From assembly GCA_963727445.1 (NCBI GenBank), contig CAVSGI010000010.1:352001-416000 (forward strand): a DNA stretch of 64,000 nucleotides. Reading direction: 5' to 3'. Positions within the stretch are counted from its first letter, which is position 1, and every line of letters begins with the position of its first letter. The DNA comes from an uncultured delta proteobacterium (GTDB taxonomy: Bacteria; Myxococcota_A; Polyangia; Polyangiales; B10-G4). The notes below the pieces were generated by a model. That model was given only the letters and a program-made list of their open reading frames with translations, was not told the DNA's origin and did no database searches. The translations under genes were made by a program, and so were the position numbers. This document shows positions 1,130-54,136 of the stretch, in pieces.

Positions 1130-3349
1130 TCAGAGGCCGCTGGAAGGCTCAGGGATGGGCAAGCCGCTCGCGTCCAGATTTCGCTGGTTGTCTCGGTAGA
1201 GGACTTCGTCGTTGATGCGCGCCTGGTCGAAGCCCGCCGTCTGGATGTTGGCGCCGATGGGATTCGACGAGACGACGCCGCTGTGCAGGTCCATCGTGCC
1301 TCCGCCCGCGAGCTGGATGCCGGCCAGCGCATTGCCGTCGACGACAAAGTCGCGGGCATCGAGCTGGGCGTTCGAATAGGCGCCGAGGCCGACGCCGATG
1401 CCGGCGCCACTGCAGCTGGAGGTGGCGCAGGCGCGCTCCGCCGTGTCCCGCACCTCGACGTCGACGAGCTCGACGGTGGTGCCATCGCCGCGCGCCGCGA
1501 TGGTAATCTCCCGGTTGTCGGTGAAGAAGCCTCCCTGGACGTTCACGGTGGCGCCATTCTGGGCGACGAGCCCGACGCCGAATTGTCCGCTCGCGGCTTC
1601 GCTCTCGGTGCGCCTGACCACCACGCTCTCGAGGGTGAGCGACGTGCCGGCGCCGTCGGCGCCGATGCCGGTCTCGTGGTTGTCCTCGACGAGCACCGAG
1701 GTCGCGCGCGCGTGGCTGCCGTCGCCCAGATACATGCCGCGACCGAAGCGCCCGTCGCTCGTCTGGCCGCGTGTGCCGCGGATGATGAGGTCGGTGATCT
1801 CGGCGTCGGCCGTCGCTCCCACGATGACGAGGCCCGCCTGCTCGTTGTCCTCGAGCAGAACGCGCTCGAGCTGCGCAGAATCCTCGACGTGGATCCCCTG
1901 ACCGAGCGTTCCATCCAGCCTGCGGCCGATGGTGTCGCGAATCGTCACGTCCGACAGGACGAGGGGCGTGCCCGTCCGCGTGGAGACGCCCGCGGTCTGG
2001 TTTCCGGCGAAGAGCGAGAGCGTGACCTGGGCGCTCGCGGCGTCCTCGAGACCGAGGCCGAATCCGTCGATCACGTCTCCCTCGGCGCCGGTGGTGTCGG
2101 CTACCACCAGGTGCTCCCCCTCGACGCGGCTACCCGAACCCAACGCGAAGACGCCCGCCTCGGCCGTGTTGGCCACGAAGACGCGTTCGAGCATCGCCAT
2201 AGAACCCTCGCTCAGGCTCAGCCCGCGCCCGAGACGCCCGTCCGAGGTTCGCGTGATGTCGCGGATGATCGAGTCGCGCAGCACGAGAGCGGTTTGAGCG
2301 TTGGTCATCGTGATGCCGCCGCTGACGTTGCGCTCGATCACGCTGGCGTCGAGGGTGATGTGGCCGCCCTCCGACACGTCGACGCCCTGCCCGAAGCGCC
2401 CGTCGGCCTGGGGCATCGTTCCGAAAAGCGCCAGCTCGCTGATCGCGGCGGAGGAACCGGCGCCGAGCACCCACAGGCCCGTCGCCAGGTTGCCCTCGAG
2501 GGTCACCTGCGCGAGCTCGACTGTGGAGCCATCGAAGACGGCGAGACCCGCGCCGGACTCGCCCGTCGCGCGCGCGCGTGTCTCGCGAACGACGACCCGG
2601 TCTCCGCTCGCGTGGGCGCCGTTTCGCACGACGACCCCGAACTCCCGCGCCCCCTCGACGGCGACACCGTGGAGCTCGACCGCGCCGGACTGCACCACGA
2701 CTCCGGGTCGCTCGCCAGAGAGGTGGACGTTGCGCACGACCGCGCCTTCCCCGAGCACCGTCACCACGCCGCTCGACACCGAAGCGCTCGTCGCCTCGAT
2801 CCCCGAGTCGGAGGTGCAAGCGCCCACCAGAGAGACGCCCGCCCTCAGGGATACGGCCTCCGAAGCCATGCCCCTTGCCAACGCGATCGTGGTGCCGGAG
2901 CTGGCGCGCGCGACGGCATCGGCAATCGTCGCGAAGGGCGCATCGCGCGAGCCATCCCCACTCGGCGCTGCACCCGGCTGCACGTACAGAACGTTCGTGG
3001 CCGGCAAATCCTCGGCCCACGCGCCCGCGGGGCAGGGAGCGCCAATCGGTGCGCACGCCGCCGTCCCGACGAAGCGAGCCTCTCCCATCGCGCAACCGTG
3101 CACCGTCCCCGACGCCCACGGCTCGCAGACCGTCACGCCATGAGCCGAGCGCTCGGTCCATCCATCCGGGCACGGCGTGAGCACGGGTGGCGCGGGCGAA
3201 AGGACCGCCATCCCGGCGTCGCCGCCCGCGTCCATCATGGCCGCGTCGGGTTCGCCTCCGTCGTCGCCGGTGCAGCCGAACAGCGCGAGGCATCCCACGA
3301 TCGTGCATCGGGCGAGCGCGATGAAGAGCGACCGAGCGAAAGCGCGCAT
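1130..3349 (-). CDS. Lipoprotein with DUF1565-like cap and right-handed parallel beta-helix repeats
   Basis: Lipobox-like LALFGC and a DAG-rich linker. 'VLYVQPGAAPSGDGSRDAPFATIADAV' is the typical beta-helix N-cap, followed by repeated 'DGRFGQG/DGRLGRG..V..G...L....L..N' units. Start is uncertain (3349 or 3391). Confidence 0.75.
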   Translation of the reverse strand: MRAFARSLFIALARCTIVGCLALFGCTGDDGGEPDAAMMDAGGDAGMAVLSPAPPVLTPCPDGWTERSAHGVTVCEPWASGTVHGCAMGEARFVGTAACAPIGAPCPAGAWAEDLPATNVLYVQPGAAPSGDGSRDAPFATIADAVARASSGTTIALARGMASEAVSLRAGVSLVGACTSDSGIEATSASVSSGVVTVLGEGAVVRNVHLSGERPGVVVQSGAVELHGVAVEGAREFGVVVRNGAHASGDRVVVRETRARATGESGAGLAVFDGSTVELAQVTLEGNLATGLWVLGAGSSAAISELALFGTMPQADGRFGQGVDVSEGGHITLDASVIERNVSGGITMTNAQTALVLRDSIIRDITRTSDGRLGRGLSLSEGSMAMLERVFVANTAEAGVFALGSGSRVEGEHLVVADTTGAEGDVIDGFGLGLEDAASAQVTLSLFAGNQTAGVSTRTGTPLVLSDVTIRDTIGRRLDGTLGQGIHVEDSAQLERVLLEDNEQAGLVIVGATADAEITDLIIRGTRGQTSDGRFGRGMYLGDGSHARATSVLVEDNHETGIGADGAGTSLTLESVVVRRTESEAASGQFGVGLVAQNGATVNVQGGFFTDNREITIAARGDGTTVELVDVEVRDTAERACATSSCSGAGIGVGLGAYSNAQLDARDFVVDGNALAGIQLAGGGTMDLHSGVVSSNPIGANIQTAGFDQARINDEVLYRDNQRNLDASGLPIPEPSSGL

Positions 3350-3441
3350 GAGGGACCAGTGTGCCAAAAAGAAGAGGTGGCGACCCATCAAAGCGCTCGA
3401 CGCTCGTTGCTCGCGCGCGCGCCCAGCGGTAGAAGGGCCCG

Positions 3442-4911
3442 ATGGAGCGTCGCGAGCGACCCTATCTCTTTTATTCGGCGACGCGCGCGCTCTGCGGGAC
3501 CTGCCTTGCCACCGTCGACGCCAAGGAGCTGATCGAGGACGGCAAGGTCTGGCTCTGGAAGCGATGTCCGGAGCATGGCCAGGAGCGGGTGCTCATCAGC
3601 GACGACGTCGCGTACTTCAAGCTCTGCCGCGAGGTCTTCCTCAAGCCGCCCGAGCAGGTGGAGCGCTACAACACGCCCTTCGCCCGCGGTTGCCCGCACG
3701 ATTGCGGCATCTGCCCCGACCACGAGCAGCACGGCTGCGTCAGCCTCCTCGAGATCACCGACCACTGCAATCTGCGCTGCCCCACCTGCTATGCCTCGAG
3801 CGGACCGGAGCGCGACTCGGTCCGAACGATGGACGAGATCTGCGCGATGCTCGATCGCATCGTGGCGAACGAAGCGGAGCCCGACGTGGTGCAGGTCTCG
3901 GGCGGCGAGCCGACCACTCATCCTCGGCTCTTCGAGATCCTCGACGAGTGCCGGCGTCGGCCGATCAAGCACTTGATGCTCAACACGAACGGCCTGCGCA
4001 TCGCGCAGGAGCCGGGCTTCGCCGAGCGACTCGCGGCGTACCAGCCGGGATTCGAGGTGTACCTGCAGTTCGACGGAGTCTCCGACGAGGTGGCGCGCCC
4101 GCTCCGCGGTGCCGACGTCACCGAGCTCAAGAAGCGCGCCGTCGAACGGCTGAACGAGGTCGGGCTCTCCACCACGCTCGTCGCCACCATCCGGCGCGGC
4201 GTGAACGACGATCGCCTCGGTGAGCTCATCGCCTACGCCGCCGCGCAGCCCGCGGTGCGCGGGGTGACGCTGCAGCCCATCTACGACTCGGGGCGCAACG
4301 AGCACTTCGAGCCGGAAGGGCACCGCATCCCCTTGTCGGAGGTGCGGCGGCGTGTCGTCGAGCAGTTTCCGGCGCTCACCGCCGCGGACGTGATCCCGGT
4401 GCCCTGTCACCCCGACTGCCTGGCGATGGCCTACGCGATCCGTGGCGAGGGCGAGCGCTTTGCCGAGCTCACGCCGCTCACCCGGCACGTCCCCGCGGAG
4501 GTGCTCCTCTCGGCGGGCAAGAACACCATCGTCTACGAGGGCATGGCGAAGCAGATCTTCCGCACCTTCTCGACCGGCCATGGCCCCGAGGGTGCGACGC
4601 ACGCGCTTCGCGACCTCCTGTGCTGCCTGCCGCGGGTCGACGCGCTCCCGGAGCTCACCTACGACCGCGTCTTCCGCGTGCTGATCATGTCCTTTCTCGA
4701 CAAGCACACGCTGGACCTCCGCTCGGTCCGCAAGAGCTGCGTCCACGTCGCGTCTCGCGACGGCAGGCGCATGATCCCGATGGACACCTACAACATCTTC
4801 TATCGCGACGCGCCGGCGGAGAGCGAGCTGGTGGCGGCTTCGTCGCTCGGGCGCCGGTCGAGCCAGAAGAGCACGGCGAAGAGCGCGATGAACGCGAGCG
4901 ACGACCACTGA
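3442..4911 (+). CDS. Radical SAM protein of the Tes/GDGT-MAS (MJ0619)-like family, bacterial subtype
   Basis: N-terminal CGTC...KRCPEHG (rubredoxin-like), GCPHDCGICPDH (auxiliary cluster), TDHCNLRCPTC (CxxxCxxC), SGGEPT, NTNG, YLQFDG, and C-terminal KSCVH...IPMDTYN. Confidence 0.85.
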   Translation: MERRERPYLFYSATRALCGTCLATVDAKELIEDGKVWLWKRCPEHGQERVLISDDVAYFKLCREVFLKPPEQVERYNTPFARGCPHDCGICPDHEQHGCVSLLEITDHCNLRCPTCYASSGPERDSVRTMDEICAMLDRIVANEAEPDVVQVSGGEPTTHPRLFEILDECRRRPIKHLMLNTNGLRIAQEPGFAERLAAYQPGFEVYLQFDGVSDEVARPLRGADVTELKKRAVERLNEVGLSTTLVATIRRGVNDDRLGELIAYAAAQPAVRGVTLQPIYDSGRNEHFEPEGHRIPLSEVRRRVVEQFPALTAADVIPVPCHPDCLAMAYAIRGEGERFAELTPLTRHVPAEVLLSAGKNTIVYEGMAKQIFRTFSTGHGPEGATHALRDLLCCLPRVDALPELTYDRVFRVLIMSFLDKHTLDLRSVRKSCVHVASRDGRRMIPMDTYNIFYRDAPAESELVAASSLGRRSSQKSTAKSAMNASDDH

Positions 4912-5528
4912 TAGAAGGTGAGGCCGAGGGCGAGCGTCGGCTCCGGCCGCACCCACTCGGTGAAGAAGCGGTAGACGAAGTAGGCGAGGAAGTAGAGCTT
5001 GATCCGCTGGCGCTCGAAGAGGCCGCGCTGGCCGAGCGCGTAGAGCACCACAGCCGCGCTGGCGTGAAAGAGCGCCTCGTAGATCTGCGTGGGATGGCGG
5101 GCGACGCCGTCGCCGAAGTCGACCGCCCAGGGAAGGGTGCTGGCCGCGCCGTAGCAGCAGCCCGCCCAGAAGCACCCGAGGCGGCCGACGGCGATGCTGG
5201 CCGCCAGCGGCACCGCGAAGCTGTCGCCGGTCTTGGTTTTCACGCCCGCGGCGAGCTTCGCCACCTCGACCCCGAAGTAGCCCCCGACCAGGCCGAAGGT
5301 GATGGTGCGCCCATCACCGAGCCACACGGTGCCGTCGAGCAGCCCCGCGGGGTCGGCGACGAGCCAGGGGATCTTGGCGAAGGTCGTGCCGCCGATGATC
5401 GCACCGAGGACGAGGGCGAGGCGCGTGAGCCGGTTCAGCGGCAGGGGTGGCGACAACTTGCGGCGCACCACCGCTCCCACCAGGACCGCGCTGCTCATGA
5501 TGAGCAGATAGACGAAGTCGACATTCAA
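4800..5528 (-). CDS. Prolipoprotein diacylglyceryl transferase (Lgt) family paralog
   Basis: GRLGCFWAGCCYG, HPTQIYE and YRFFTEWVR motifs with several TM helices. The TTG start at 5528 overlaps the upstream stop (TTGA). Confidence 0.85.
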   Translation of the reverse strand: MNVDFVYLLIMSSAVLVGAVVRRKLSPPLPLNRLTRLALVLGAIIGGTTFAKIPWLVADPAGLLDGTVWLGDGRTITFGLVGGYFGVEVAKLAAGVKTKTGDSFAVPLAASIAVGRLGCFWAGCCYGAASTLPWAVDFGDGVARHPTQIYEALFHASAAVVLYALGQRGLFERQRIKLYFLAYFVYRFFTEWVRPEPTLALGLTFYQWSSLAFIALFAVLFWLDRRPSDEAATSSLSAGASR

Positions 5529-6085
5529 TACGCGCCCCCGAACGCCAGGACGCCGAAGCAGATGGCGATGAGGATGATGAAGGCAGCGACCGCCAAGAGG
5601 AAGACCAGACCGGTCACCACCACCACCGCGCCGAGGCCGATGGCCAGGGCCGTGGCGACCTCGCCCATCACGTCGCTGGCCATCGAGGAAGACTCTTCGG
5701 CCTGGTCCGCGCGCGCTGTGGCGTTCGCGGGCTGGGCACTCGGTGGGGCGCCGCTCGACTCGAAGGGCTTGCGGTCGCGCCAGAAGTCGAAGCGCTGCAC
5801 GTAGATGATGCGCGCCATCACCGCCACCACCGGCACCAGCATCAGCGCGTAGGGGACGAGGAGCCCCGGCCAAAGGAGCGCGAGCTCGAGCGCGACGCCG
5901 AGCATCACCATGAGCGCGAGGACGAAGCCGCCGATCCAGACGAAGCCCTCGAGCGGGGGCGCCGCGACAAGCTGACCCGTCGGCGCGGCCGCCGTTTCGG
6001 CGAGGGGGTAGCCGCAGAGCCAGCAGAACTTCGCGTCACCCTCGGCGCCGCTCCCGCAGCTCGGGCAGATACGGCCCGCCTTCAC
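5525..6085 (-). CDS. Zinc-ribbon membrane protein with a Cys-containing C-terminal hydrophobic segment
   Basis: GTG start overlapping the upstream stop. CPSCG...FCWLCG zinc ribbon, two central TM helices, and C-terminus ...AVAAFIILIAICFGVLAFGGAY. Confidence 0.7.
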   Translation of the reverse strand: MKAGRICPSCGSGAEGDAKFCWLCGYPLAETAAAPTGQLVAAPPLEGFVWIGGFVLALMVMLGVALELALLWPGLLVPYALMLVPVVAVMARIIYVQRFDFWRDRKPFESSGAPPSAQPANATARADQAEESSSMASDVMGEVATALAIGLGAVVVVTGLVFLLAVAAFIILIAICFGVLAFGGAY

Positions 6086-6705
6086 GAGGCCTCCTTCCGC
6101 GCGGCGTAGGCGTCGGCTGCCTCGCGAAGCGCCTTCATGAGCTGGCCGAGGGCGAGGCCGCTGAGCCCGAGGGCGAGGATGGTCATCACCTGTTGGTAGC
6201 GGGGGACGCGCATCTCGGGGCGGCGGAGCCAGGCATCGCCCACCAGCACCACGTAGCCGCCGATGGTGGCCAGGGTCGTGTAGCGGACCAGCGGGCGACT
6301 CAGGCGGAGGGGCGCGCCGGCGAGGATCACGAAGTAGGCGATGACCAGCGGGCTCTTCGGTCCGTCGGCGATCAAGAGGATCGACGTCAAGAGCACTACG
6401 TCGATGGTGGTGGTGACGTACTTCAGCGCCTCGGGGAAGCGCCGGCTGCGCATGGTGATGATCACGCCGAGCGCCGAGGCCATCCACGCCACCGCGAGCG
6501 CGGTGACCGCGGCGTGGAAGGTCTGGTCCACGCCCTCGACCCGCTCGAAGCTCAAGGAGCCGAGGTCCAGGCCGTGGTAGTTCAGGAGCTCGACCGCGTA
6601 GAAGCACGCGATGGCGAGGATCCGCATCAAGTTGGCCCGCTCTTCGCCGCGATACGACCACACACGACGAACGACGTGCCAAGCGCTCGGGAGTGCGTCG
6701 GACAT
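6082..6705 (-). CDS. Uncharacterised integral membrane protein (about 6 TM)
   Basis: Hydrophobic ORF (GEERANLMRILAIACFYAVELLNY...IDVVLLTSILLIADGPKSPLVIAYF). Its stop overlaps the next start (GTGA). Confidence 0.75.
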   Translation of the reverse strand: MSDALPSAWHVVRRVWSYRGEERANLMRILAIACFYAVELLNYHGLDLGSLSFERVEGVDQTFHAAVTALAVAWMASALGVIITMRSRRFPEALKYVTTTIDVVLLTSILLIADGPKSPLVIAYFVILAGAPLRLSRPLVRYTTLATIGGYVVLVGDAWLRRPEMRVPRYQQVMTILALGLSGLALGQLMKALREAADAYAARKEAS

Positions 6706-6756
6706 GGCCGGCACTGTCTCACGACGGCGTGAAAAATGGGTGGGGGAACTTCGCGA

Positions 6757-7731
6757 TCACTGCGCGGCCGTCGGGCGCGCGACGAGGGTGATCGCTCGCC
6801 GGTCCTCCTCGGCTCTGGAGAGCAAGCGGCTCAGGCGGTCGGCGACGGAGGTGCGGTGGGTCGGCAGGCTGAATGCGTCTCGGTCTTCGTGACATCGCGC
6901 GCAGGGCATCGTGGTGAGGGCTTGGGGGGCGCCGAGGTCGAGGAGGAAATCGTCCGCGCCGAGATCGGGAATGCGGCGAACCTCGGTCTCTTCGCGGAGC
7001 AGCAGCTCACCGCACGCGAGCGCGGCGCGATCGAGATGGAAGACGCGTGCTCTCGCCGGACCGTCTTCGTCGAGCTCGAGCAGCTCGATCTCGCCAGCGA
7101 CCCGCGAGAGGTACGCGGCGCCGGCATCGTCGAGGGCGACGAGCTGGCTCGCGAGGGCGCGCGCTTCGTGGTCACCCCGTACGAAGAGTCGAAAGACGCG
7201 TCTCAGCCCGAAGAGACGTTCGTGGGTGAGCACCACGTGCTCGGTGTCGAGCTCGCGCCAGCCGTCTCGCGAAGCGAGCACGTGCTCGACGATCGGCGGT
7301 GCGTCGACGCTGTCGAAGCGCGCGCCGGATGGGAGCGCGAAGCGGGTGATGAAGTCGTCGAGGGCGGCGAGCAGTGCCTGGCTCTCGGGTGACGAGATGC
7401 CCGTCGCGCGGAGGCGCGCCGCGGCCCCCCAGGCGTCTCCTTGTGTGACGACCGCCACTTCGGGGCGCACCTGACTCGCGTGGCGCGCCGGGACCCGGGA
7501 GAGCGCCGCGGTCAGCTCGCTGGCTCGGGCGAGCACGCCCTCGCTGTCGGCCGAGAGCAGCGCCGGCTCACCATTCGACGTCGTGACGGCGTACACGCGC
7601 GCGAGCGCCGCGCTCCCGTAGGATGGAGCGTCGCACGACGTCGTGGCTGGCTGGCGCACCTCTTCGTCACAACCGTCGCAGCTCCACAAGAAAAAGGGCA
7701 GCGCGAGGAGGAGCGCTCGAGGCCGATTCAC
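6757..7731 (-). CDS. Putative lipoprotein with a C-terminal CxxCH (possible monoheme c-type protein)
   Basis: GTG start overlapping the ACAD stop, signal 'RPRALLLALPFFLWSC', and CARCH near the C-terminus. Confidence 0.6.
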   Translation of the reverse strand: MNRPRALLLALPFFLWSCDGCDEEVRQPATTSCDAPSYGSAALARVYAVTTSNGEPALLSADSEGVLARASELTAALSRVPARHASQVRPEVAVVTQGDAWGAAARLRATGISSPESQALLAALDDFITRFALPSGARFDSVDAPPIVEHVLASRDGWRELDTEHVVLTHERLFGLRRVFRLFVRGDHEARALASQLVALDDAGAAYLSRVAGEIELLELDEDGPARARVFHLDRAALACGELLLREETEVRRIPDLGADDFLLDLGAPQALTTMPCARCHEDRDAFSLPTHRTSVADRLSRLLSRAEEDRRAITLVARPTAAQ

Positions 7732-9656
7732 TCGGCGGCGTGGGCCTGCCCGTCGCGCTCGCGCGCCGCGAGCTCTTCGAGGAGGCGGTCGCCGGTGGTG
7801 GTGATCTCGTCCGCCCAGTAGCGGCAGCGCGGCTCGGCGCGCTCGAGGTAGCGCTCCAGCACCTCGCGGCGGTGCGGGTGCTTCTGCGCCTGTTCGAGGA
7901 GGATCTCGCAGACCATTTCGTCGGCGAGGAGCTTGGTCAGGCGTTCGGCGTGGAGCATGGCGAAGGCGAAGTCGCGCTTCGGATCCCAGTTCTTGAGGAA
8001 CTTGTCCGGCCACTCGGTGATGGGTTGGTCGGAGACCGAGCGGAACTTGTCGCCGGCCGTCTTGCGCAGCAGGTATTGCTTCACGCCGTCGGACAGGACG
8101 TTGATCTTCGCCACGCGGCGCTCGAGGGGGTCGCGTGCGGAGACCGAGCGCCAGCGTGCCTGCGCCGCGCGTCGCACGAAGCGCTGCGGGCTGTTCATGA
8201 TACCGCCGAGCGTGTCCTTCATGGCCATCAGCGACTGGATCTGGCTGGTGCCTTCGTAGATGGGCATCACCATCGCGTCGCGGAGGAGCTTCTCGGCGGG
8301 ATACTCGTTCATGTAGCCGTTGCCGCCGTGGATCTGGACGCAGCGGCGTGCCATCTGCACCGCCTTCTCACTGGCCAGGTACTTGAGGAGCGGCGTCGCG
8401 CGCCGGGAGAGGCGCTGCCGGCGCTTCGCCTCTCGCTCCATCTCCTCGGCAGACATGCCCGATTGCGAACCTCCAAAGCGCGCGCCGAGGAGAAACTTTT
8501 GTGCGATCTCCTCGTGGTATGCCGCCCAGACAGCCATCGCACGGACGGCCTGGATGTCCGTCTTCATCTCTTCGAGGTAGTCGGCGATCATCTCGTGCCG
8601 GTCGATGGTCTTGCCCATCGAGGGGCGCTCCTCGGCGTATGCAATCGCCGCGCGATAGGCGGCCTCACAGATGCCGATGCACTCGAAGCCCACGCCGACC
8701 CGCGCGTTGTTCATCAGTGTGAGCATGTGCTTGAAGCCTTCGCCCCGCTTGCCGATGAGGTCGGCCGGCGCGCGATCGAAGAGGAGCGCCGCGGTGGTCG
8801 AGCCGTGGTGGCCGAGCTTCTCCTCGACCCGCGTGATCTGCACGATGCGCTCGCGGGTCCCGTCTGCGTTCTCCCGATAGGTGGGCACCAGGAACATGGA
8901 GAGCCCACCGAGGCCCGAGAAGGGATCGTCGAGATCGCCCTGAGGCTCGGTGCGCGCGATGACGAAGTGGTACTTCCCGTGACCCGCGGTGATGAAGATC
9001 TTCTCACCGCTCACGTACCAGTTGCCGTCCTCGTCCTGCTCGCCGACCGTGCGGAGCTGCGCCATGTCGCTTCCGGCATGCGGCTCGGTGATGTCCATGC
9101 AGCCCCAGGCCTTGCCGCTGCGGATCTCCTCGATGTAGTCGGCCCACCGCGTGCTGACGATCCGCGCGTTTTCGGCGTCGATCTCGCTCGTCCCCTCGCG
9201 GATCGAGAAGATCAGCATCGCCATGGCCATGCCGCCGTGGAAGCTGTGATGCGCGAGCACCGAGACGTCGGCGCGTCCCATCATCTCCGAGTTCATGAAG
9301 TAGAGCAGCAGCGGACAGTTCATCCCGCCGAGCTCGCGCGGGATGGTCATCCCGTGCAGCTCGAGGGCGGCGATCTTGCGGAAGATCGCTTCGAACTCGG
9401 CGGGCTGCTTCGGCTCGCCGTCCACCAGCTCGACGCCCTCGCGATCGATCTTGGCCGCGTGCGGCGCGATCTCGTTGGCGGTGAACTCGCCGACCATCTC
9501 CGCGATCTCGCGGTAGAACTCGACCGCCTCCTTCGGATCTTTGAACGCGTCCTTGGCGCGGTAATCGAACTCGGTGAGCCGCACCAGCGGCTCCCAGTCG
9601 ATGCCTTCGCGCATGTAGTACTGGAGGTCTTCGTTGTCTTTGAAGAAGTTCGCCAT
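7728..9656 (-). CDS. Acyl-CoA dehydrogenase (long, FadE/DmdC-like)
   Basis: MDITEPHAGSD, GEKIFITAG, EEKLGHHGS, MNNARVGVG, VQIHGGNGY and PIYEGTSQIQ motifs. Confidence 0.9.
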   Translation of the reverse strand: MANFFKDNEDLQYYMREGIDWEPLVRLTEFDYRAKDAFKDPKEAVEFYREIAEMVGEFTANEIAPHAAKIDREGVELVDGEPKQPAEFEAIFRKIAALELHGMTIPRELGGMNCPLLLYFMNSEMMGRADVSVLAHHSFHGGMAMAMLIFSIREGTSEIDAENARIVSTRWADYIEEIRSGKAWGCMDITEPHAGSDMAQLRTVGEQDEDGNWYVSGEKIFITAGHGKYHFVIARTEPQGDLDDPFSGLGGLSMFLVPTYRENADGTRERIVQITRVEEKLGHHGSTTAALLFDRAPADLIGKRGEGFKHMLTLMNNARVGVGFECIGICEAAYRAAIAYAEERPSMGKTIDRHEMIADYLEEMKTDIQAVRAMAVWAAYHEEIAQKFLLGARFGGSQSGMSAEEMEREAKRRQRLSRRATPLLKYLASEKAVQMARRCVQIHGGNGYMNEYPAEKLLRDAMVMPIYEGTSQIQSLMAMKDTLGGIMNSPQRFVRRAAQARWRSVSARDPLERRVAKINVLSDGVKQYLLRKTAGDKFRSVSDQPITEWPDKFLKNWDPKRDFAFAMLHAERLTKLLADEMVCEILLEQAQKHPHRREVLERYLERAEPRCRYWADEITTTGDRLLEELAARERDGQAHAAE

Positions 9657-10314: not shown

Positions 10315-10437
10315 GCAGGGATGCAAGAGGGCGCGAGCCGCTGTGGGGCCGTGAGGAATGACAGACCGCCCAATTCCAAGGGCGCCGAGATGTGCTTATG
10401 GGTCTCGCCCCAACGCAAAAACGGAGAAAGACACGAC

Positions 10438-12105
<1,668 letters not shown>

Positions 12106-16780: not shown

Positions 16781-19700
16781 TCAGTCGTCGAGGAGCTTCG
16801 GGTCCACGATGATCGACGGCAGGTCGCCGTCCTGCGACGGCTTCGGCTTGGGCTTCGGCGGCGGGAGGGGGATCTCGGCGGTCTCTGCTTCGGCGATGGT
16901 CGGCGGTGAGGCGATGCGCCGATTCGTGGTCACCTCAGGCACCTCTTCGTTGGCGAGAGCGGCGGCGGGGATCGGCGGTGGCGCGGGCGGGCCGCTGGCC
17001 TTTCGCGGCGGTGGCAGCGCCACCTCGGAGGTGACCTCCTCCTCTTCCTCGGGCGGTGCCGGGCGCTCGGAGGTGACGGCCTCGTCGTCCACTGCCTCCG
17101 GGGGACCCGAGACCGCGGTCTTCACGTCGCCTTCGTAGGGAGGCGGCGGAGGAGGACCGGAGACGGCGGTCTCGTCCTCCGGCTCCACCGGCGGCAGGGC
17201 CTCGAGACCCGAGGGCGGGCCCGAGACGGCGGTGGTGGGCTCCGGCTCCCTTTCGGGAGGTGGGGGTGGAGGGACGCGGCTCGACTGGGCGAGCCGGGCG
17301 ATCGCCTCGCGCGCCTCGGGATCGTCCGGCGCCAGCTCGATCACGCGCTTCCAGGTGTCCGCGGCCTCCCACGGGTTGTTCGCTTCCTCTTCCCAGAGCC
17401 TCGCGAGCTGCCGCAGGTGCGAGACGCGCTCCTGATCGTCGTCGAGGCGCGCGATGCGCCGCTCGAGAAGACCGGTGAGCTCTTGCACTCGGCCGGACTC
17501 GATCAGACAGAAACGCAGGCGCCGCATCACGCCTTCGTCGTCCGGGTTCATCGAGATGGAGCGCATGTAGGAGTCGATGGCGTCGCTCTTTCGGCCGAGC
17601 CGCTGCTCGTAGATCTGCGCCTGTCGCGCCACGAGCGCCGCCGCCTCGCGCCGGTCCGTCGACTCCGCGACCATCTTCGACAGGTGCTGATCGAGATGAT
17701 CGAGGAGGTCGCGCTCGACGGCGCTCTCTTCGATCGCGTCGAGAACGCCCTTCTCGGTCGGCGCGAGCGCCAGCGCCGTCTTGAGCACGCCGAAGGCGAC
17801 CTCCTGGAGGCCCAGCTTGGCCTTCATGCGTCTGGCCGCGCGAACCAGCGCCTTGGCGCGCGCCGCGTTGGGCGCGGCCGGGTCGTTGCCGCGGGATTCG
17901 TAGACGCGGACCAGTTGCTCCGTGCCCTCGCGACCCAGGCGCTCCGCCGCAGCCTCGATCCGATCGAGGAGCGTGTCTTCGTCTCCCGCTTCGTTCACCG
18001 CTTCGCGCAACATCTGTTGGACGATGCGGGACTTGCCCGCGCGATACGCGACCCGTGCACCGCGGCAGAGAAGCCCGACGGCTTCCTCGCCCCCGATGAG
18101 ATGCCCGCGGTCGACATAGGCCAGCAGCACGTCGTCCATCCGGCCCGAGCGCGGCGCGAGTGTCTCGAGCTCGTCGAGCAGCACCTCGTTGGTCGGCATG
18201 AGCGCGCTCACTCGGAGCAGCCGATCCACCGCCTCGTCGGACCGCCCGCGCGCGGTGAGGTAGTTCGAGTGGCGGAGCGCCAGCGCCACCGAGTCCGCTT
18301 CGGTCGGCGCCTTCTCGATCAGCTGCTCGTAGAGCGCATCGAGCTTTGCCGAAGCGCCTGCGGACTCGGCGAAGCGCTCCGCGCGATCCAGGAGCTCTTC
18401 GCCCGCGCCCACGAGCTCGAGCGCGCGGGTGGTGGCGGTGAGCGCTTCCTGGAATCGGCCGGCTTTGGCGAAGCGGTCCGCCGCCCCGACCACCAGGCGC
18501 AAGCGCTGAGCCGGCGCCTCGGCGCGCCCCGCGACCTCGATCAAGAACCAGGCGCGTGCGTTTTCGCTCTCCGCCTCGTCTGTATTGCTCTCGGTCGGGT
18601 GGGCCGCCTCGGTCGCTGCTTCGGCGACGATGTCGATCCACCTCTGACGGTCTTTGCGCGCGAGGCGGATGAGGTCGTCGAGGCGCGCGAGGAGACCACC
18701 CCAGTCCTCGCGTTCGGCGAGAGCCGGCAGCAGCGCGACGCGCGGGTCGATCTCGTCGGGGGCCATCTCCTCCCATCGAGAGAGCGCCCGAACCATGCCC
18801 GTCGTCTCTTTGAGAGGGCCCTCGTAGAGCTTGGCGAGGAGGCGGAGCACGTACCGCTTGCGCTTTCCTTCGGTCAGCGGCACCTGCGCCTCGAGCGCGC
18901 GCGCCTGCATCCGTTGGTCTCCCGTCTCTTTCGCCAGATTCTCCAGGTGCTCGAGGAGCGCCACGTTCTTCTGACCGAAGGACTTCGCGGCGTGGGCGAG
19001 GACCTTCATCGCGAGCTGCGGCCGGCCCAGATCGGTCGCGAGGATCTCGGCACGTTCGAGCGCGTGCCCACTCCTGACGTCCGGATCGGTGGTGACCGCC
19101 GCGAGGCGCGCGAGGATCACGTCGAGCCGCGCCGCGTCCCCTTCTTCGCGGGCGTCGTCACGGAGCTTCTCGAGCTCGGCGGCGTCGTTGGTGTCGCCCA
19201 CGAGCTGCGTCCACATCCGCAGCGCCTCGTCCGGATCCTGGAGCTGGTCGGCGGAGAGCCTCGCCATGCGCTCCTGGTGGACGCGGCGGCTCTCGGCGTC
19301 GAGGGCCGAGGAGAGCAGCAGCCCGAGCACGATCTTCTCTTCGCCGAAGCGCTGGGCGCGTCTCAGGGCTGCCGCGGCTTCGGCTGCGAGCTCGCGGTCG
19401 TCCTGCGCGAGCTCGAGAGCGGCCGTGAGCGCGTCGGCCGCTCGGTCCACGTTCGACAGGTGCTCCTCGGCGAGCTCCGCGATGCGCCGGTGGAGGCGGA
19501 CCGCCTCTTTGCCGCTCACCAGCTTCACCCACAGCTCGAGGAGCTCGAGCGCCGCGGCGTAGCGCTCCTGAACGATGGCCAGCTCTACCGAGCGTTCGAG
19601 CGCCTCGGTGTCCTCGGGGTGCGCTTCGCGAACGAGGGCCCAGGCCTCGGCCGCACGGGCGGTCTGACCCCACTCGTCGAAGAGGCGCGCGAGAATGCGA

Positions 19701-21475
19701 TAGACATCGGCGCGCAGCTCGGGGGACGCGGACTGCGCGTAGGCCTCGGCGCGTTCGAGGGCCGTCGACTCCGCGCCCGCGGTCTCCAGGGTCGCGCTCA
19801 GGTCTCGATGGACGCCGGTGACGCGGTCTCCTTCGACGATGCCGAGGAGAGAGAGGAGCGCTTCGGTGGCCTTGGTCTGATCACCTCGGAGGCCCCGATG
19901 CATCGTGGCGAGCTTTTCGAGGATCGGAACCCGCTGCTGCGGCGACAGCCCACCCACGTCTTCTTCGAGGAGCGCGGCGAGCTCGTCCCACTCTCCTGCG
20001 AGCTCGGCGAGGCGCACGCGATGGCTGCGCGCGTTCGCGGAGTCGGGCCCGGAGGTGAGGCCCTCGGCCTCGCGGAAGCACAAGAGGGCTGCGGGCACGT
20101 CCCCCAGCTCTTCCAGGAGCAGGCCGAGGGTGGGCAGATACTGCTTTCGACGACTGGGCGACCGCGAACAGACGTCCGCATAGACCTCGGCGAGCCCCGC
20201 ACGGTCGCCTTTGTCCGTCCGCACCCTCACCACCAGCTCGAGCGCCTGCTCGTGGTCCGGGTTCTCGGCCAGGAGCGCGAGGGCGTGCTCCGCGGCCCCT
20301 TCCGGGTCGCCAGGGGCGAGGATCGAAAAGAGCTTCTGATGGAGCTCGAGCTCGTCCGACTCCTCGATGACCTCGAAGCTGGCCTTCGCCCACCGTCGCG
20401 CCTCCACGCGTCGCTCCGCCGCATCGTGGAGCTCCACCGCGCGCAGGATCGCTTCGAGGTCGCCGCGCCGGGCGAGCTCTTCGAACCAGCTCAGCGCATC
20501 CTCGGGGCGACCGGCGGCGGAGAGCTCGCGCGCCAGACGCCAACGGACCTCGTCCGCCTTGGGCCCGTCGGGGAAGGCCTGGACGTGCTTCTCCCATCGG
20601 ATGAGCAGCTGGTCCGGCTCGTCGACGGCGAGCTCCTCGTAGAGCTCGAGCGCCGGGGAGTGCTCCGGGGAGACGTCCAGTGCCTCGCGCACGCACATGA
20701 TCTGGTCGTCGGGGTCCACCGCGTTGACCAGATCGACGAGGATGTCGGCGGCGGTGTAGCGATCCCGCGACCGCCGGTCCGGGTCGTCGGTCGTCTCCGC
20801 CCGCATCAGGAGCGTGTCCACCAGCTCGCGGCGGGTCTCGACGTCCGAGGGGAGGGTGCGGACCGCCCGCTCGAAGAGCTGCACGGCGAGGTCCATGTCC
20901 GCGAGGTGGTCGCGGACGATGCGCGCGCGGATACGGAAGAGCTCGGAGCGCCGGGTGCGATCCGGCTCCACGGCGATCTCGCTCTCCAGAATGTTGGACG
21001 CGTCTTGCCAGCGCTCGGTCTTGACCGCGACCCGGCGCGCCGCCTGGGCCACACCGATCTGCGAGGGGTCGAGCTCGAAGGCCCGCGCGTAGTGCTCGAA
21101 CGCTCCGTCGAGCCTCCCCGTTCGTTCCAGGGTGTGGGCGAGGCGCGCGTGCGTCGCGGCCATCTCTCGCGCGTCTCCTCTGGTCGCCGCCAGCACCTCG
21201 AGGCGCCGCGCCTGCTCGGTCGCGAGGCCGAGGTCGTCACCCAGCTTGGCCAGCGTCTCCTCGAGGAGCGCGGAGGCTCGTGCGTGGTCCGGAGCCTTGT
21301 CGATGGCCCCGCGCAGGTACGTCACGGCCTTGCGAGCTTTGTCGACCTCCAGGGCCCGCGCCCCGGCCTCGGCGAGGAGGTCGGCGGCCTGCCGCGGATC
21401 CGCACTGTTCTTCGCCTGTTTGGCGAGAACGCGAATACTCGGACGCTCGTCGTCGTTGCCGCCGAAGATGCCCAC
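16781..21475 (-). CDS. Giant TPR/alpha-solenoid protein (myxobacterial AgmK-like) with a Pro-rich C-terminal tail
   Basis: 1564 aa of helical TPR-like repeats (e.g. AADTWKRVIELAPDDPEAREAIARL) and a Pro/Glu-rich tail. Confidence 0.75.
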   Translation of the reverse strand: MGIFGGNDDERPSIRVLAKQAKNSADPRQAADLLAEAGARALEVDKARKAVTYLRGAIDKAPDHARASALLEETLAKLGDDLGLATEQARRLEVLAATRGDAREMAATHARLAHTLERTGRLDGAFEHYARAFELDPSQIGVAQAARRVAVKTERWQDASNILESEIAVEPDRTRRSELFRIRARIVRDHLADMDLAVQLFERAVRTLPSDVETRRELVDTLLMRAETTDDPDRRSRDRYTAADILVDLVNAVDPDDQIMCVREALDVSPEHSPALELYEELAVDEPDQLLIRWEKHVQAFPDGPKADEVRWRLARELSAAGRPEDALSWFEELARRGDLEAILRAVELHDAAERRVEARRWAKASFEVIEESDELELHQKLFSILAPGDPEGAAEHALALLAENPDHEQALELVVRVRTDKGDRAGLAEVYADVCSRSPSRRKQYLPTLGLLLEELGDVPAALLCFREAEGLTSGPDSANARSHRVRLAELAGEWDELAALLEEDVGGLSPQQRVPILEKLATMHRGLRGDQTKATEALLSLLGIVEGDRVTGVHRDLSATLETAGAESTALERAEAYAQSASPELRADVYRILARLFDEWGQTARAAEAWALVREAHPEDTEALERSVELAIVQERYAAALELLELWVKLVSGKEAVRLHRRIAELAEEHLSNVDRAADALTAALELAQDDRELAAEAAAALRRAQRFGEEKIVLGLLLSSALDAESRRVHQERMARLSADQLQDPDEALRMWTQLVGDTNDAAELEKLRDDAREEGDAARLDVILARLAAVTTDPDVRSGHALERAEILATDLGRPQLAMKVLAHAAKSFGQKNVALLEHLENLAKETGDQRMQARALEAQVPLTEGKRKRYVLRLLAKLYEGPLKETTGMVRALSRWEEMAPDEIDPRVALLPALAEREDWGGLLARLDDLIRLARKDRQRWIDIVAEAATEAAHPTESNTDEAESENARAWFLIEVAGRAEAPAQRLRLVVGAADRFAKAGRFQEALTATTRALELVGAGEELLDRAERFAESAGASAKLDALYEQLIEKAPTEADSVALALRHSNYLTARGRSDEAVDRLLRVSALMPTNEVLLDELETLAPRSGRMDDVLLAYVDRGHLIGGEEAVGLLCRGARVAYRAGKSRIVQQMLREAVNEAGDEDTLLDRIEAAAERLGREGTEQLVRVYESRGNDPAAPNAARAKALVRAARRMKAKLGLQEVAFGVLKTALALAPTEKGVLDAIEESAVERDLLDHLDQHLSKMVAESTDRREAAALVARQAQIYEQRLGRKSDAIDSYMRSISMNPDDEGVMRRLRFCLIESGRVQELTGLLERRIARLDDDQERVSHLRQLARLWEEEANNPWEAADTWKRVIELAPDDPEAREAIARLAQSSRVPPPPPPEREPEPTTAVSGPPSGLEALPPVEPEDETAVSGPPPPPPYEGDVKTAVSGPPEAVDDEAVTSERPAPPEEEEEVTSEVALPPPRKASGPPAPPPIPAAALANEEVPEVTTNRRIASPPTIAEAETAEIPLPPPKPKPKPSQDGDLPSIIVDPKLLDD

Positions 21476-36068: not shown

Positions 36069-38684
36069 TCAGGCGATGAAAGCGCGCAAGGCCTCGATGG
36101 CGGCGGCGATGTCGACCCCGACGTCGAGGAGCCCGGCCATGGGATCGCCGACCTTCGCCACACGCTCGGGGACGGTGAAGATGTCGAAGGCCCGGGGGTC
36201 GAGGGCGAAGCTCACCTCGTCCCAGCTGAGCGGCGTCGAGACGGTCGCGCCTGGCCGGGCCCGTACGCTGTAGGGCGCCACGATGGTCCGCGACGGACCG
36301 ATCTGACCCACGTCGACGTAGACCTTCCCCGCCCGCGTCTCCTTGTTGCGATTCATGGTCGCGATGTCGCGGTGGCGTGACAGCAGGATGCGGCCCAGCA
36401 CCTCGCCCAGCATCTTGGCGGTGGGCCAGGCCACGCCCTCGCCGACGGGAACGAAGACGTGGAGCCCGCTCTGCCCCGAGGTCTTCGGGAAGCTCGGCAG
36501 CCCGATCTCCTCGAGGATCTCGTGCAGGGTGCGGGCGAGGGTGATGGCGTCGCGGAGCGGCCGTTCCTCGAGATCGAAATCGATGGTGACGAAGTCCGCC
36601 AGATCGAGCCGCCCTTTGCGTCCACCGAGGATGTGCACCGGGATGCAGCCGAGGTTCGCGATGTAGAGGAGGGTGTCGAGGTCGTCCACCAGGAAGCAGG
36701 TGACGTCCTTGTCCTCCTCTTCGCTCTTGATCGGCAGGGAGCGAACCCAGCTCGGCGCGCGCCACGGTACCCGCCACTGATAGAAGTTCTTGCCCCGGAT
36801 CCCGTCGGGGTAGCGCACCAGCATCACGGGCCGATCCGAAAGGTACGGCAGGATCGTCGGAGCCATCGCCTCGTAGTAATCGCAGAGGTCCCCCTTGGTG
36901 TATCCCTCCTCGGGCCAGAAGACCTTGTTCTGGTTCGTCAGCTGAACGCGGTGGCGGCCGGCGAGACGGGTGTCCGGCTTGTCCTGCTTGCGCGGGGTGT
37001 CCTCGATCGCCTCGGCCAGATCATCGGCGAGGCGCGGCGCGGCGGTGCAATCGTCCATCGGCACGTCCTCACGCACGCCGCGAAAGACCGGGAAGCGCAA
37101 CACTCCGTCCTCGCTCCACCCGAGATAGCGGACGTTGACCACGATCTCGGGTTTGACGTGAACGCGGCCCGCCTTCTTCGGCCCGTAGGTGCCCGCCGCC
37201 TGAGGCTTCTTCCGCTTCAGCTTTTCGAGGCGCGGCAGGAGCGTGGCGATGGTGGCCTCATCGAGGCCGCTCCCGGCTTTGCCGCGCACCGTCAGTACTC
37301 CGTGCTCGTCGAAGGTCGCGAGGTCGAGGGCGCCGAGGTCCTTCCGCCCGCCTTCCCCCTTCGTGTAGCCGACCACCACGAAGTCCGCTTCGCGTTCGGT
37401 CTTGATCTTCACCCAATCGGGGTAGCGGGTCGGCCCCTCCATGTACTTGGAGGCGCCGCGCTTGGCGACGACGCCCTCGAGGCCCTGCTCGAGGCAGAAG
37501 TCGTAGAGCGCGCGACCCGAGTCCTCGATGTGGTCGAGGACCCGGACCCATCCGCCGCCGCGCACGATCTCGCCGAGGAGCTCTTTTCGTGCCGTGAGCG
37601 GGAGCCGCGTGAGGTCGTAATCGCCGGCCTGAAGGACGTCGAAGACCAGGTAACGCACCGGGACGGCGTCCACCACGAAGGAGACGTCCCCGCGCCTGCG
37701 GGCGTGGATCCGCTGGCCGAGGCGCTGGAAGTTCGGCTTGCCCTTCTCGTCGAAGGCGACGACCTCGCCGTCGAGGAGCACGCGCTCGATGGGCAGGGCG
37801 CGAATGGCTCTGACGATCTCCGGGTAGCTCGAGGTCGCCGGGCGTCCCGTGCGGTAGCTGAGCCGCACCGAGTCGCCGCGCTTGTCGGCGAGGATCCGAA
37901 CCCCGTCGATCTTGAGCTCGTAGAGCCAGCCCTTCGCGTCGAGGTCCGGCTCTTCGAGACTGCAGAGCATGGGCGAGACGCGGCGGCCTTCCTTGCCCTT
38001 GCTCTTCTTCGCGCCCAGCTCCTCCGCTGCGGCCTCGACGGCCTCGCCCACGTCGAGGCTCTCGGCACGCTCGTCCACAGTCAGGCCCGACAGGACGCTC
38101 CACCGCGCATCGGCGACGACGTCCGAGCCCGGCTTGGAGAAGCCGTCCTCCTTCTTGAGGAGCAACCACTCGAAGGGCTTTCCGTCCTTGCGCGGCGGCT
38201 TGGGACCCTGCCCGCGCGGATTGGTCCGCACGAGCGCGAAGCGGCCACCGAGCTTGAAGCCGTCGAGGATGAAGTCGAGCTTGCCGTTGTCAATCTGCTC
38301 TTCGGCCGCGGCCTCTGGGTAGATGACCCGCCCCTGATCCCACACGATCATCGCACCCGCGCCGTAGTTGCCCTTGGGGATCACGTCCTCGAAGTCGAGG
38401 TAGCCCATCGGGTGGTTCTCGGTCTGAATCGCTAGACGCTTCTGTTTGGGGTCGAGGCTCGGGCCTTTGGGAACGGCGAAGCTGGTGAGCACGCCCCCGA
38501 CTTCGAGGCGCAGGTCGAAGTGGAGGTTCCGCGCGGCGTGGCAATGCACCACGAACGCACCGCGGCGCGTCGCCCCAGTGCTGTGCAAGGGTTCAGCTCC
38601 GAAGGGCTCGTTCGTCGCCCCGGGATCGCGTTTGTCCCGATAGGTATCGAGCGAGCGCTTCGTTTCTCCCCGTCTCTTGGCCAA
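36069..38684 (-). CDS. ligD: DNA ligase D (phosphoesterase-ligase-polymerase)
   Basis: HAARNLHFDLRLE and AVPKGPSLDP (PE domain), ELKIDGVR, EGVVAK and WVKIK (ligase), RYPDG, KTSGQSGLH and VAPYSVRAR (polymerase). Confidence 0.95.
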   Translation of the reverse strand: MAKRRGETKRSLDTYRDKRDPGATNEPFGAEPLHSTGATRRGAFVVHCHAARNLHFDLRLEVGGVLTSFAVPKGPSLDPKQKRLAIQTENHPMGYLDFEDVIPKGNYGAGAMIVWDQGRVIYPEAAAEEQIDNGKLDFILDGFKLGGRFALVRTNPRGQGPKPPRKDGKPFEWLLLKKEDGFSKPGSDVVADARWSVLSGLTVDERAESLDVGEAVEAAAEELGAKKSKGKEGRRVSPMLCSLEEPDLDAKGWLYELKIDGVRILADKRGDSVRLSYRTGRPATSSYPEIVRAIRALPIERVLLDGEVVAFDEKGKPNFQRLGQRIHARRRGDVSFVVDAVPVRYLVFDVLQAGDYDLTRLPLTARKELLGEIVRGGGWVRVLDHIEDSGRALYDFCLEQGLEGVVAKRGASKYMEGPTRYPDWVKIKTEREADFVVVGYTKGEGGRKDLGALDLATFDEHGVLTVRGKAGSGLDEATIATLLPRLEKLKRKKPQAAGTYGPKKAGRVHVKPEIVVNVRYLGWSEDGVLRFPVFRGVREDVPMDDCTAAPRLADDLAEAIEDTPRKQDKPDTRLAGRHRVQLTNQNKVFWPEEGYTKGDLCDYYEAMAPTILPYLSDRPVMLVRYPDGIRGKNFYQWRVPWRAPSWVRSLPIKSEEEDKDVTCFLVDDLDTLLYIANLGCIPVHILGGRKGRLDLADFVTIDFDLEERPLRDAITLARTLHEILEEIGLPSFPKTSGQSGLHVFVPVGEGVAWPTAKMLGEVLGRILLSRHRDIATMNRNKETRAGKVYVDVGQIGPSRTIVAPYSVRARPGATVSTPLSWDEVSFALDPRAFDIFTVPERVAKVGDPMAGLLDVGVDIAAAIEALRAFIA

Positions 38685-51881: not shown

Positions 51882-52604
51882 TCACTCAGCCTGTCGCGAG
51901 CGGACCAGGTCGACGAAGGGCGCCATCCCCTCGGGGATGGCGAAGGCGATGCAGGGAATGCCGCCCGCTTCGAGGGTCCCGATGAGGTCGCGACCGAAGG
52001 CGAGTCGCGATCCCCACACCGCGATCAGCGTGTCGTTGCCGACCCGGTTCAAGAGCGCCGCGAGGCGCGTGGGCTCGACCGGAGGTGGGTCGCCCGCGTC
52101 GATGAGGATGATGTCGATCTCGCGCTCGAGCTGAGCTCTGAGGGCGAGCACCGAGGTCGCGGGCTCCGTTTGCACCAGGCTGCCGCCGAGGGCGACCTCG
52201 ATCGTCGAGGCGAACCCCGGGCGAGTCGAGACCACCAACACCTGCACCGGCCGAGTGATGGGACGCAGGGCGCGGGTGGTGTCGGCGTTCAGGGCGAAGT
52301 CGGTCACGCCCGAGACGGGTGGGGGCAGCACGCTCGGCTTGGAGTCGTCGTCCGTGTGGTCGACGACCGCCAGCGCCATCTCCACGCGGAGCATGGTGTC
52401 TCCCACGTCCTCGGCGCGCAGGTAGCGGTCGAGCACCTCGCGGAGCGGGCCGCGAACGAAGCGGGTCAGCTCCTCGCGATTCTGAGGGATTTGCGGGCCC
52501 CAGCGGGTCAGCGCGTCGAAGAGGATCGCCCGCGCCATCACCGGGGAGAGCTCCTCGGAGAGGCGCTGCCGAACCCGTCGTATGTTCGCGACCGCGGACC
52601 CCAT
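51882..52604 (-). CDS. Hypothetical protein
   Basis: About 240 aa, protein-like ORF with GC3 bias, divergent from the NAD operon. Confidence 0.6.
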   Translation of the reverse strand: MGSAVANIRRVRQRLSEELSPVMARAILFDALTRWGPQIPQNREELTRFVRGPLREVLDRYLRAEDVGDTMLRVEMALAVVDHTDDDSKPSVLPPPVSGVTDFALNADTTRALRPITRPVQVLVVSTRPGFASTIEVALGGSLVQTEPATSVLALRAQLEREIDIILIDAGDPPPVEPTRLAALLNRVGNDTLIAVWGSRLAFGRDLIGTLEAGGIPCIAFAIPEGMAPFVDLVRSRQAE

Positions 52605-52664
52605 CGTGGGCCGATGGTGGGGCCCCCTGGGGGCGGCGTAAAGGCGGATTATCGAGCGCACCCC

Positions 52665-52699
52665 TTGACCGCGAAGGATCTGAGTGTATATTCTACACT
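52665..52699 (+). promoter_or_regulatory. Sigma70-like promoter overlapped by an NrtR operator
   Basis: TTGACC (52665) and TATATT (52687). The palindrome AGTGTA-TATTC-TACACT (52683-52699) contains the NrtR core GT-N7-AC, and nrtR lies in the downstream operon. Confidence 0.8.
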
Positions 52700-52711
52700 A
52701 TGAAACGGTGC

Positions 52712-54133: not shown

Positions 54134-54136
54134 ACC

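Follow-up and report, generated by a model that had tools for sequence, protein, structure and literature searches.

The stretch analysed here, a 64,000-nucleotide window of contig CAVSGI010000010.1 from an uncultured delta proteobacterium, carries at 3442..6705 a gene for a radical S-adenosylmethionine (rSAM) enzyme resembling the tetraether lipid synthase Tes (GDGT-MAS), next to a gene for an Lgt paralog and two genes for membrane proteins. We incline to the view that bacteria of many phyla weld phospholipid tails together by radical chemistry and attach the resulting macrocyclic or membrane-spanning lipid to a cysteine in dedicated membrane proteins without signal peptides, through a private Lgt that has no His103. 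More specifically, a three-part module is proposed in which the rSAM enzyme (P0001) joins phospholipid tails and the Lgt paralog (P0002) then moves the tail-joined diacylglyceryl group to C176 of a small membrane protein (P0003); this tentative scheme is held to have a little less than an even chance of being correct. We infer both reactions, the donor, the order and the product from what was observed, namely the genes, their linkage, the fusions, the folds, the residues and the cysteine. The features are as follows.

3442-4911, + strand: Tes/GDGT-MAS-like rSAM gene, P0001, 489 aa (PF04055 and PF23545, model, trees)
4800-5528, - strand: Lgt paralog gene, P0002, 242 aa, TTG start, seven predicted helices (PF01790, model, residue table)
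5525-6085, - strand: zinc-ribbon membrane protein gene, P0003, 186 aa, GTG start (alignment, helix-cysteine rule)
5558-5560, - strand: codon of C176 in P0003, predicted modified cysteine (sequence and alignment)
6082-6705, - strand: gene for a stand-alone, possibly PilS-like membrane protein with six transmembrane segments, P0004, 207 aa (weak PF25323 match, Atlas matches, six segments)
4800-4911, both strands: tail-to-tail overlap of the rSAM and Lgt genes, 112 bases (coordinates, model confidence, genome G006)

Linkage of the rSAM and Lgt genes recurs in other genomes, which was one of the checks named in the original prediction. At least 588 coding stretches related to the rSAM were found, and the best 80 were used for locus counts. 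Among these 80, the closest named relatives bear the title Sandaracinaceae (78% identity), and the titles include Myxococcota, Planctomycetota, Pseudomonadota, Acidobacteriota, Gemmatimonadota-type, Elusimicrobiota, Omnitrophota, Opitutales, and one archaeal label. Bacteroidota plasmid records also carry relatives. At 72 of the 80 loci, the DNA retrieved includes an Lgt match. Six of the remaining eight end at contig edges, and two (L014 and L016) have full flanks; in the genome of L014, the operon of six-transmembrane, zinc-ribbon and Lgt genes sits on a separate contig from the rSAM gene.

A Tes-model search of 151 Acidobacteriota genomes served as a control, with matches sorted into tiers and part of them fetched; the counts exclude one locus of an unpublished genome. 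Lgt was beside 7/7 loci scoring above 800 bits on the clade profile. The window's rSAM clade, which is mostly found near an Lgt paralog, differs in this from Tes-proper (matches over the cut-off), where Lgt was beside 0/28 Acidobacteriota loci within flanks of only 1.5 kb. Corresponding counts were 0/21 for mid-tier Tes-like loci (3 kb flanks) and 1/12 for other Tes-like loci. A paralog-type Lgt match was present in 21 of 121 genomes sampled from the window's order, the weakest such matches perhaps being housekeeping copies, and all 21 also had a Tes-like rSAM. The two genes were on one contig within 5 kb in 14 of these genomes, split by a contig break in one, and on different contigs in six. 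In eleven genomes of the sample, the rSAMs were all more distant ones (best 219-348 bits), and neither gene was present in 89. Chance adjacency of rSAM and Lgt was rejected on the basis of the Acidobacteriota tier control and the 121-genome sample. A search of longer proteins, with 8000 candidates scored, found four Lgt-rSAM fusion proteins with the Lgt portion first, three of which are 53-56% identical to the Lgt of the window.

Other arrangements were seen among the rSAM relatives. At L170, L172, and in several genomes of the 121-genome sample, divergent Tes-like rSAM genes stand in tandem as pairs or triplets, with no Lgt. On a Mycolicibacterium plasmid, a Tes-like rSAM with 37% identity (L182, 3471-5054) has a methyltransferase, CcdA, and another rSAM as neighbors and no Lgt. 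A complete module is present on a contig titled Halobacteriales archaeon (L082), in a genome with only one Lgt match; the archaeal label could reflect transfer or mis-binning.

The rSAM protein has PF04055 and PF23545 domains (Pfam) and a folded core to about residue 457. Its model (mean predicted local distance difference test score, pLDDT, 83.6) matches GDGT-MAS over the whole length, including the C-terminal cluster domain. Against GDGT-MAS, Foldseek gave an E value of 3e-36 and a template modelling score of 0.77; the VIA comparison with PDB entry 7TOM gave Z 43.7 and a root-mean-square deviation (rmsd) of 3.0 over 421 residues, and the next structure reached only Z 19.4. The likeness to Tes of M. 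jannaschii (MJ0619; PDB 7TOL/7TOM) covers the whole four-domain fold, the rubredoxin, and the ligands of the N-terminal and SAM clusters. The Tes motifs for the rubredoxin and N-terminal cluster were taken from PMC9433317. The original prediction had described three cysteine motifs, all of which were confirmed (C18xxC21..C42PEH45, C84xxxC88xxC91xxH94, and C109xxxC113xxC116). Rubredoxin (Cx2C-x20-Cx2H), the N-terminal cluster (Cx3Cx2C plus H), and the SAM-cluster ligands are invariant in 44/44 clade sequences.

Resemblance to Tes and to Lgt was correctly called in the original prediction, and the rSAM is not Tes proper. Scores were below cut-off for both NF045702 (Tes; 239.3 bits, cut-off 450) and NF045646 (TrsS; 309.9 bits over residues 13-453, cut-off 490), the latter being the best-scoring NCBIfam model, and membership of either family was therefore rejected. 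TrsS is a radical SAM (seleno)protein, whereas the rSAM of the window needs no TGA read-through. In a FastTree phylogeny where Tes-proper was represented by bacterial sequences only and no archaeal ones, the Lgt-linked rSAMs form their own clade apart from Tes-proper (support 1.0), with L159 outside. The clade is also shorter in its C-terminal half: the span 278-451 has 172 residues, compared to 210.5 in Tes-proper, a difference of about 38. The missing pieces look like amphipathic helices, and the second lipid pocket of Tes is built of amphipathic helices (Lloyd et al., PMC9433317). The absent residues may correspond to this pocket. The window's subtype has three new invariant cysteines, C99, C394, and C395 (44 aligned sequences).

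Two further groups of rSAMs were encountered. One is an Lgt-linked subtype (L187, L188, P0005-P0007) in which a variable cysteine-rich stretch replaces the N-terminal cluster motif. The other is the Acidobacteriota mid tier (L136-L156), a very common Tes-like clade with 300-346 bits on NF045702 and no Lgt nearby. It has lost the N-terminal 4Fe-4S ligands (C84/C88/C91/H94 columns) and kept Met439, Tyr459, and the C-terminal cysteines. This clade is a candidate for the synthesis of iso-diabolic acid or brGDGTs (the branched kind of glycerol dialkyl glycerol tetraethers).

Lgt of the window is an additional copy. It matches PF01790 with 82 bits and scores 39 bits on TIGR00544, below the cut-off of 118.9. 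The original prediction had called for a check that a canonical lgt exists elsewhere; the genome has three more Lgt-family genes (Pfam 138, 130, and 109 bits; TIGR00544 99, 64, and 78 bits, all below cut-off), which presumably perform the housekeeping role. The paralog differs from housekeeping Lgt in being an extra copy beside these three, with neighboring proteins that mostly do not have a lipobox. Its model (pLDDT 91.7) has seven long helices and matches E. coli Lgt (PDB 5AZC) with Z 14.2 and rmsd 4.2 over 226 aligned residues, the next structure being at Z 6.9. A phmmer search with P0002 matched no solved Lgt; a profile search did.

In E. coli Lgt, residues Arg143, Arg239, Tyr235, and Glu202 bind and activate phosphatidylglycerol (PG) (PMC4728403, PMC8689077). 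Alignment to 5AZB gives R116, R187, Y183, and E151 as their equivalents in the window. Among 78 paralogs, 78 keep Arg143, 76 Arg239, 77 Tyr235, 74 Glu202, and 69 His196. The likeness to E. coli Lgt (5AZB/5AZC) therefore includes these five residues as well as the seven-helix fold. Differences are that the paralog starts at the first transmembrane segment, has a shorter outer head, has no His103, and carries a clade-specific glutamate (E88, in 75/78 paralogs). In trees, the Lgt of the window clusters with copies linked to the zinc ribbon and with three of the fusions (support 0.993), and the window rSAM groups with enzymes mostly paired to another Lgt subtype; the module of the window is thus a mosaic. 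This suggests that the partners are exchangeable and that a small-molecule intermediate connects them more than a fixed interface does.

The third part of the module is a small membrane protein. The flanks of clade loci contain unrelated small membrane proteins, each with a hydrophobic helix ending in a cysteine and often in tandem, with five at L022. Under a fixed rule, a helix-cysteine open reading frame (ORF) was present at 67/86 clade loci and 6/49 control loci. The 86 do not include L022 and L091, where the rSAM ORF continues past the contig end. The window was tallied as a miss because the ORF caller chose an upstream TTG; P0003 itself fits the rule at C176. Counted per small membrane ORF, the feature occurred in 102/167 from the clade, 6/35 from controls, and 115/505 from the genome background (3 Mb of the window's own genome). 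Two or more such ORFs were present at 22/86 clade loci. In the 102 ORFs, Lys/Arg content peaks 16-25 residues N-terminal of the cysteine, and the cysteine is within 22 residues of the C-terminus in 54. A strict lipobox was found in six, and a second cysteine 3-4 residues away in 11. The proteins are almost wholly hydrophobic, and the cysteine is the only sequence feature they share.

The original prediction expected a dedicated protein substrate, and a cysteine-bearing membrane protein does accompany the rSAM/Lgt pair. It also placed the zinc-ribbon and six-transmembrane proteins at the core of the module, which did not hold: the six-transmembrane gene was found at 6/80 loci, and the shared third part is the helix plus cysteine, on a carrier that varies. 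The zinc-ribbon protein is the window's version of this part. C7, C10, C21, W22, C24, A167, and C176 of P0003 are invariant in 10/10 aligned counterparts (21-32% identity). Three or four hydrophobic segments come before C176, which stands 10 residues from the C-terminus, and the C-terminal end is a long hydrophobic stretch. On this sequence evidence, P0003 is the likely acceptor of a lipid at C176. P0003 does not fit a classical prolipoprotein, having no N-terminal signal peptide with a [LVI][ASTVI][GAS]C lipobox at its end. Searching with tblastn found P0003 at 0/80 best loci, yet true counterparts were found by motif search; an Atlas search gave no match above 0.82.

P0004 has six hydrophobic segments, in line with the approximate count first proposed. 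Its PF25323 match is weak (17 bits, E 0.005, gathering score 27 bits). Atlas matches were 0.97-0.99, with PF25323 on 15-48% of their members, which is a lead only. As such, P0004 may resemble a stand-alone PilS-type sensor domain, accessory to one subtype. The six-transmembrane gene, present at six of the best 80 rSAM loci, is found again in further genomes together with Lgt and a cysteine-tailed protein, and in L183, L184, L185, and L186 the rSAM is within the same operon.

Carriers of other kinds were noted. In three Vicinamibacteria-titled loci (L059, L062, L093), a larger protein, which has a signal-like segment at its N-terminus and a soluble domain, ends in the helix-cysteine, and the motif may serve as a C-terminal lipidation tag. 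In four myxobacterial loci (L029, L034, L035, L037), rSAM and Lgt are beside fatty-acid-hydroxylase-like (His-box, by eye) and other membrane genes. The helix-cysteine ORF was not detected at these four loci, and the product is possibly different.

Enzymes of the rSAM class require SAM, Fe-S clusters, and a reductant. In the proposed mechanism, the rSAM would act on the cytoplasmic side and join the tails of a free, probably PG-like, phospholipid by a C-C bond. The Lgt paralog would then move this diacylglyceryl group, its tails already joined, onto the conserved cysteine of the small membrane protein dedicated to it. The PilS-like protein and the zinc ribbon may serve for sensing or as scaffolds in their subtype only. 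With an unusual donor and with acceptors that have no standard lipobox or signal peptide, the module would require an Lgt of its own. In E. coli Lgt, the active site lies in the outer half and the C-terminus is cytoplasmic (PMC4728403, PMC8689077). The acceptor cysteine is likely outside because it sits one helix from a positive patch. With rSAM fused at the cytoplasmic C-terminus of Lgt, and with the Lgt site and acceptor cysteine facing outwards, topology favors rSAM acting first. The order in the original prediction, lipidation and then cross-linking, fits less well than this reverse order. A ring within one lipid is slightly favored over a dimer of two lipids because of the roughly 38 residues that the clade does not have.

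Lgt could instead act first, adding an ordinary diacylglyceryl group to cysteine, after which rSAM would cross-link or cyclize the protein-bound chains, perhaps with an inner-leaflet lipid as partner, to form a membrane-spanning anchor. Linkage, fusion, and cysteine evidence fit this equally, and the shorter C-terminal half of the rSAM could accommodate a protein-bound substrate. We consider it unlikely, given that Tes takes whole lipids with head groups at the surface and tails inside (PMC9433317), and an anchor with its head on the outer face would hardly offer its tails to a cytoplasmic enzyme. Just as unlikely is a free membrane-spanning or macrocyclic lipid as the product, with Lgt swapping or moving head groups and the small proteins acting as scaffolds or regulators. 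The Tes fold and its lipid chemistry give a precedent, bacterial Tes homologs have been proposed for brGDGT synthesis (PMC8941075), and the absence of His103 from the paralogs would be in keeping. However, unrelated and often tandem proteins that place a conserved cysteine at one helix's distance from a positive anchor have the look of Lgt acceptors. Acidobacteriota also hold a separate Tes-proper clade without Lgt, and Tes homologs were present in only 3/14 iso-diabolic-acid producers (PMC13159169).

Quite unlikely is a C-S bond formed by rSAM directly between a lipid tail and the small-protein cysteine, with Lgt as a non-catalytic presenter of lipid. The Tes reaction has a carbon-sulfur intermediate (PMC9433317), the third-cluster site is remodelled alongside the new C99, C394, and C395, His103 is absent, and some acceptors (11/102) have the second nearby cysteine. 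Retention of the PG-activating arginines by the paralog and the predicted position of the cysteine at the outer helix end, far from a cytoplasmic rSAM, speak against such a bond. Very unlikely, in our estimate, is non-lipid chemistry by rSAM on small-protein side chains or a soluble metabolite, with Lgt independently adding an ordinary anchor. DAG-RiPPs are enzyme-modified peptides that are also lipidated (PMC13056109), the multiple acceptor copies per locus recall precursor arrays, and rSAM and Lgt subtypes are mixed and matched. The acceptors, however, are almost wholly hydrophobic with only the cysteine in common, and among solved structures a lipid enzyme is by far the nearest (Z 43.7, next 19.4).

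Several observations weigh against tail joining by rSAM followed by transfer from the Lgt paralog. In the 44 sequences of the window's rSAM subtype, the Tes Cys470 position is D/E in all 44, the Met439 position is M in 28, V in 14, and L in two (the window keeps M416), and the Tyr459 position is I/M/V and never Y. With these positions altered, the radical-storing cluster of Tes, at the third site, may be changed or lost in this subtype; the identity of the three Cys that ligate the C-terminal cluster in 7TOL was taken from alignment. Both M439A and Y459L variants of Tes are active (PMC9433317). Sister Lgt-linked subtypes retain all three cysteine motifs of the Tes C-terminal half, which argues that the third cluster is ancestral to the Lgt-linked clade. 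In the Lgt paralogs, the His103 position is V/L/T/I in 78/78 (T77 in the window; 0/78 His) and the Asn146 position is Cys in 77/78 (C119 in the window). His103 is the proposed base of E. coli Lgt, and even H103Y is inactive (PMC4728403, PMC8689077). The genome's other three copies (G000 C27, C12, and C6; L001-L003) have Y, F, and Y at the His103 position and also carry Cys at the Asn146 position, so loss of His103 alone does not mean a dead enzyme. Apart from the module, protein lipidation in this lineage seems to proceed without the histidine regarded as catalytic in E. coli Lgt.

On the same adverse side, 19/86 clade loci had no helix-cysteine ORF under the rule, and some of the 102 ORFs are probably ordinary lipoproteins or false ORFs. 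The uncharged run before C176 is 33 residues, and the sidedness of C176 appears less clear than for most acceptors. In G001, the rSAM and the three-gene operon are on different contigs, and related genomes are non-independent samples. The four genes of the window are not one operon because rSAM is on the + strand and the other three are on the converging - strand; rSAM and Lgt are thus not co-transcribed.

The four ORFs exist as originally proposed, with 4-base overlaps (GTGA and TTGA) among the three minus-strand genes (Lgt, P0003, and P0004). That rSAM abuts Lgt is accurate as to adjacency; the genes are on opposite strands, which had gone unmentioned, and they converge and overlap by 112 bases. 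This overlap codes for low-confidence tails of both proteins (pLDDT <50 in rSAM residues 458-489). An identical convergent overlap in the same-genus genome G006 (L106) indicates that the layout is not an assembly error. GC content at third codon positions is 0.91-0.94 in the four genes and 0.94 in groEL, a level typical of genuine genes. No promoter-like site or terminator excess was seen at 3000-8300 of the window, in a high-GC host, where such a scan tells nothing either way. Against the anti-phage models of PADLOC, rSAM matched viperin only through the generic rSAM core (39 bits), and Lgt, P0003, and P0004 matched none.

Divergent from rSAM, with 50 bases between the ORFs as called, is a 753-aa beta-helix repeat protein with a lipoprotein-like N-terminus (1130-3391, - strand). 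Upstream of the six-transmembrane gene, an ORF at 6757-8013 (- strand) has CxxCH near its end, a lipoprotein-like segment, and no Pfam or NCBIfam match; its real start is probably downstream of the listed one. Ordinary neighbors at 7728-9656, 10321-12105, 16781-21475, 36069-38684, and 49362-56143 are acyl-CoA dehydrogenase, GroEL (by eye), a large tetratricopeptide repeat protein, LigD, DUF3516 helicase, NAPRTase, and NAD synthase.

Other systems have parts in common with this module. Mss, a bacterial synthase of membrane-spanning lipids, is likewise a radical SAM enzyme that joins fatty-acyl tails; it is only remotely related to Tes, and the text available mentions no Lgt or protein acceptor (PMC13159169). 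DAG-RiPPs (PMC13056109) and archaeal AliA/AliB (PMC12462473) are likewise non-standard uses or versions of cysteine lipidation. DAG-RiPPs differ in relying on the Lgt of the host, on a signal peptide at the N-terminus, and on an MNIO enzyme (PMC13056109), and AliA/AliB differ in being archaeal, weakly Lgt-like, and active on lipobox proteins (PMC12462473); neither description, as far as available, has a Tes-like rSAM. The rSAM-Lgt pairing was not described in the literature searched, which covered few subscription papers and no supplements. Within the parts available, a 2026 review (PMC13459092) does not mention "Lgt" or "lipoprotein," and the pairing is not described in PMC12042123 or bioRxiv 2022.04.07.487437, 2026.02.09.704826, and 2026.09.04.749484. 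New here are the matched control by Tes tier, the subtype of four genes with PilS-like and zinc-ribbon proteins, the module's mosaic origin, and the topology argument for the order.

The role of bacterial Tes homologs is an open question (PMC8941075, PMC9433317). Those of Acidobacteriota split into at least three groups, one of them tied to protein lipidation, so having a Tes homolog does not equal making brGDGTs without a check of the clade. Variable tandem acceptor copies hint, speculatively, at a role in envelope stress or conflict. The module is directly testable because it is small, single-chain fusions exist, and it is present in cultured bacteria such as Ideonella azotifigens (L036) and Chondrinema litorale (L181). 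If the proposed scheme is true, it would represent a new post-translational modification, a new type of protein anchor, and a lipidation route independent of signal peptides, with an enzyme for sp3-sp3 coupling of fatty-acyl chains in hosts that include aerobes. It would also imply that tail-joined lipids exist in a protein-bound pool escaping solvent extraction, and it would give a first function to a large bacterial branch of the tetraether-synthase family.

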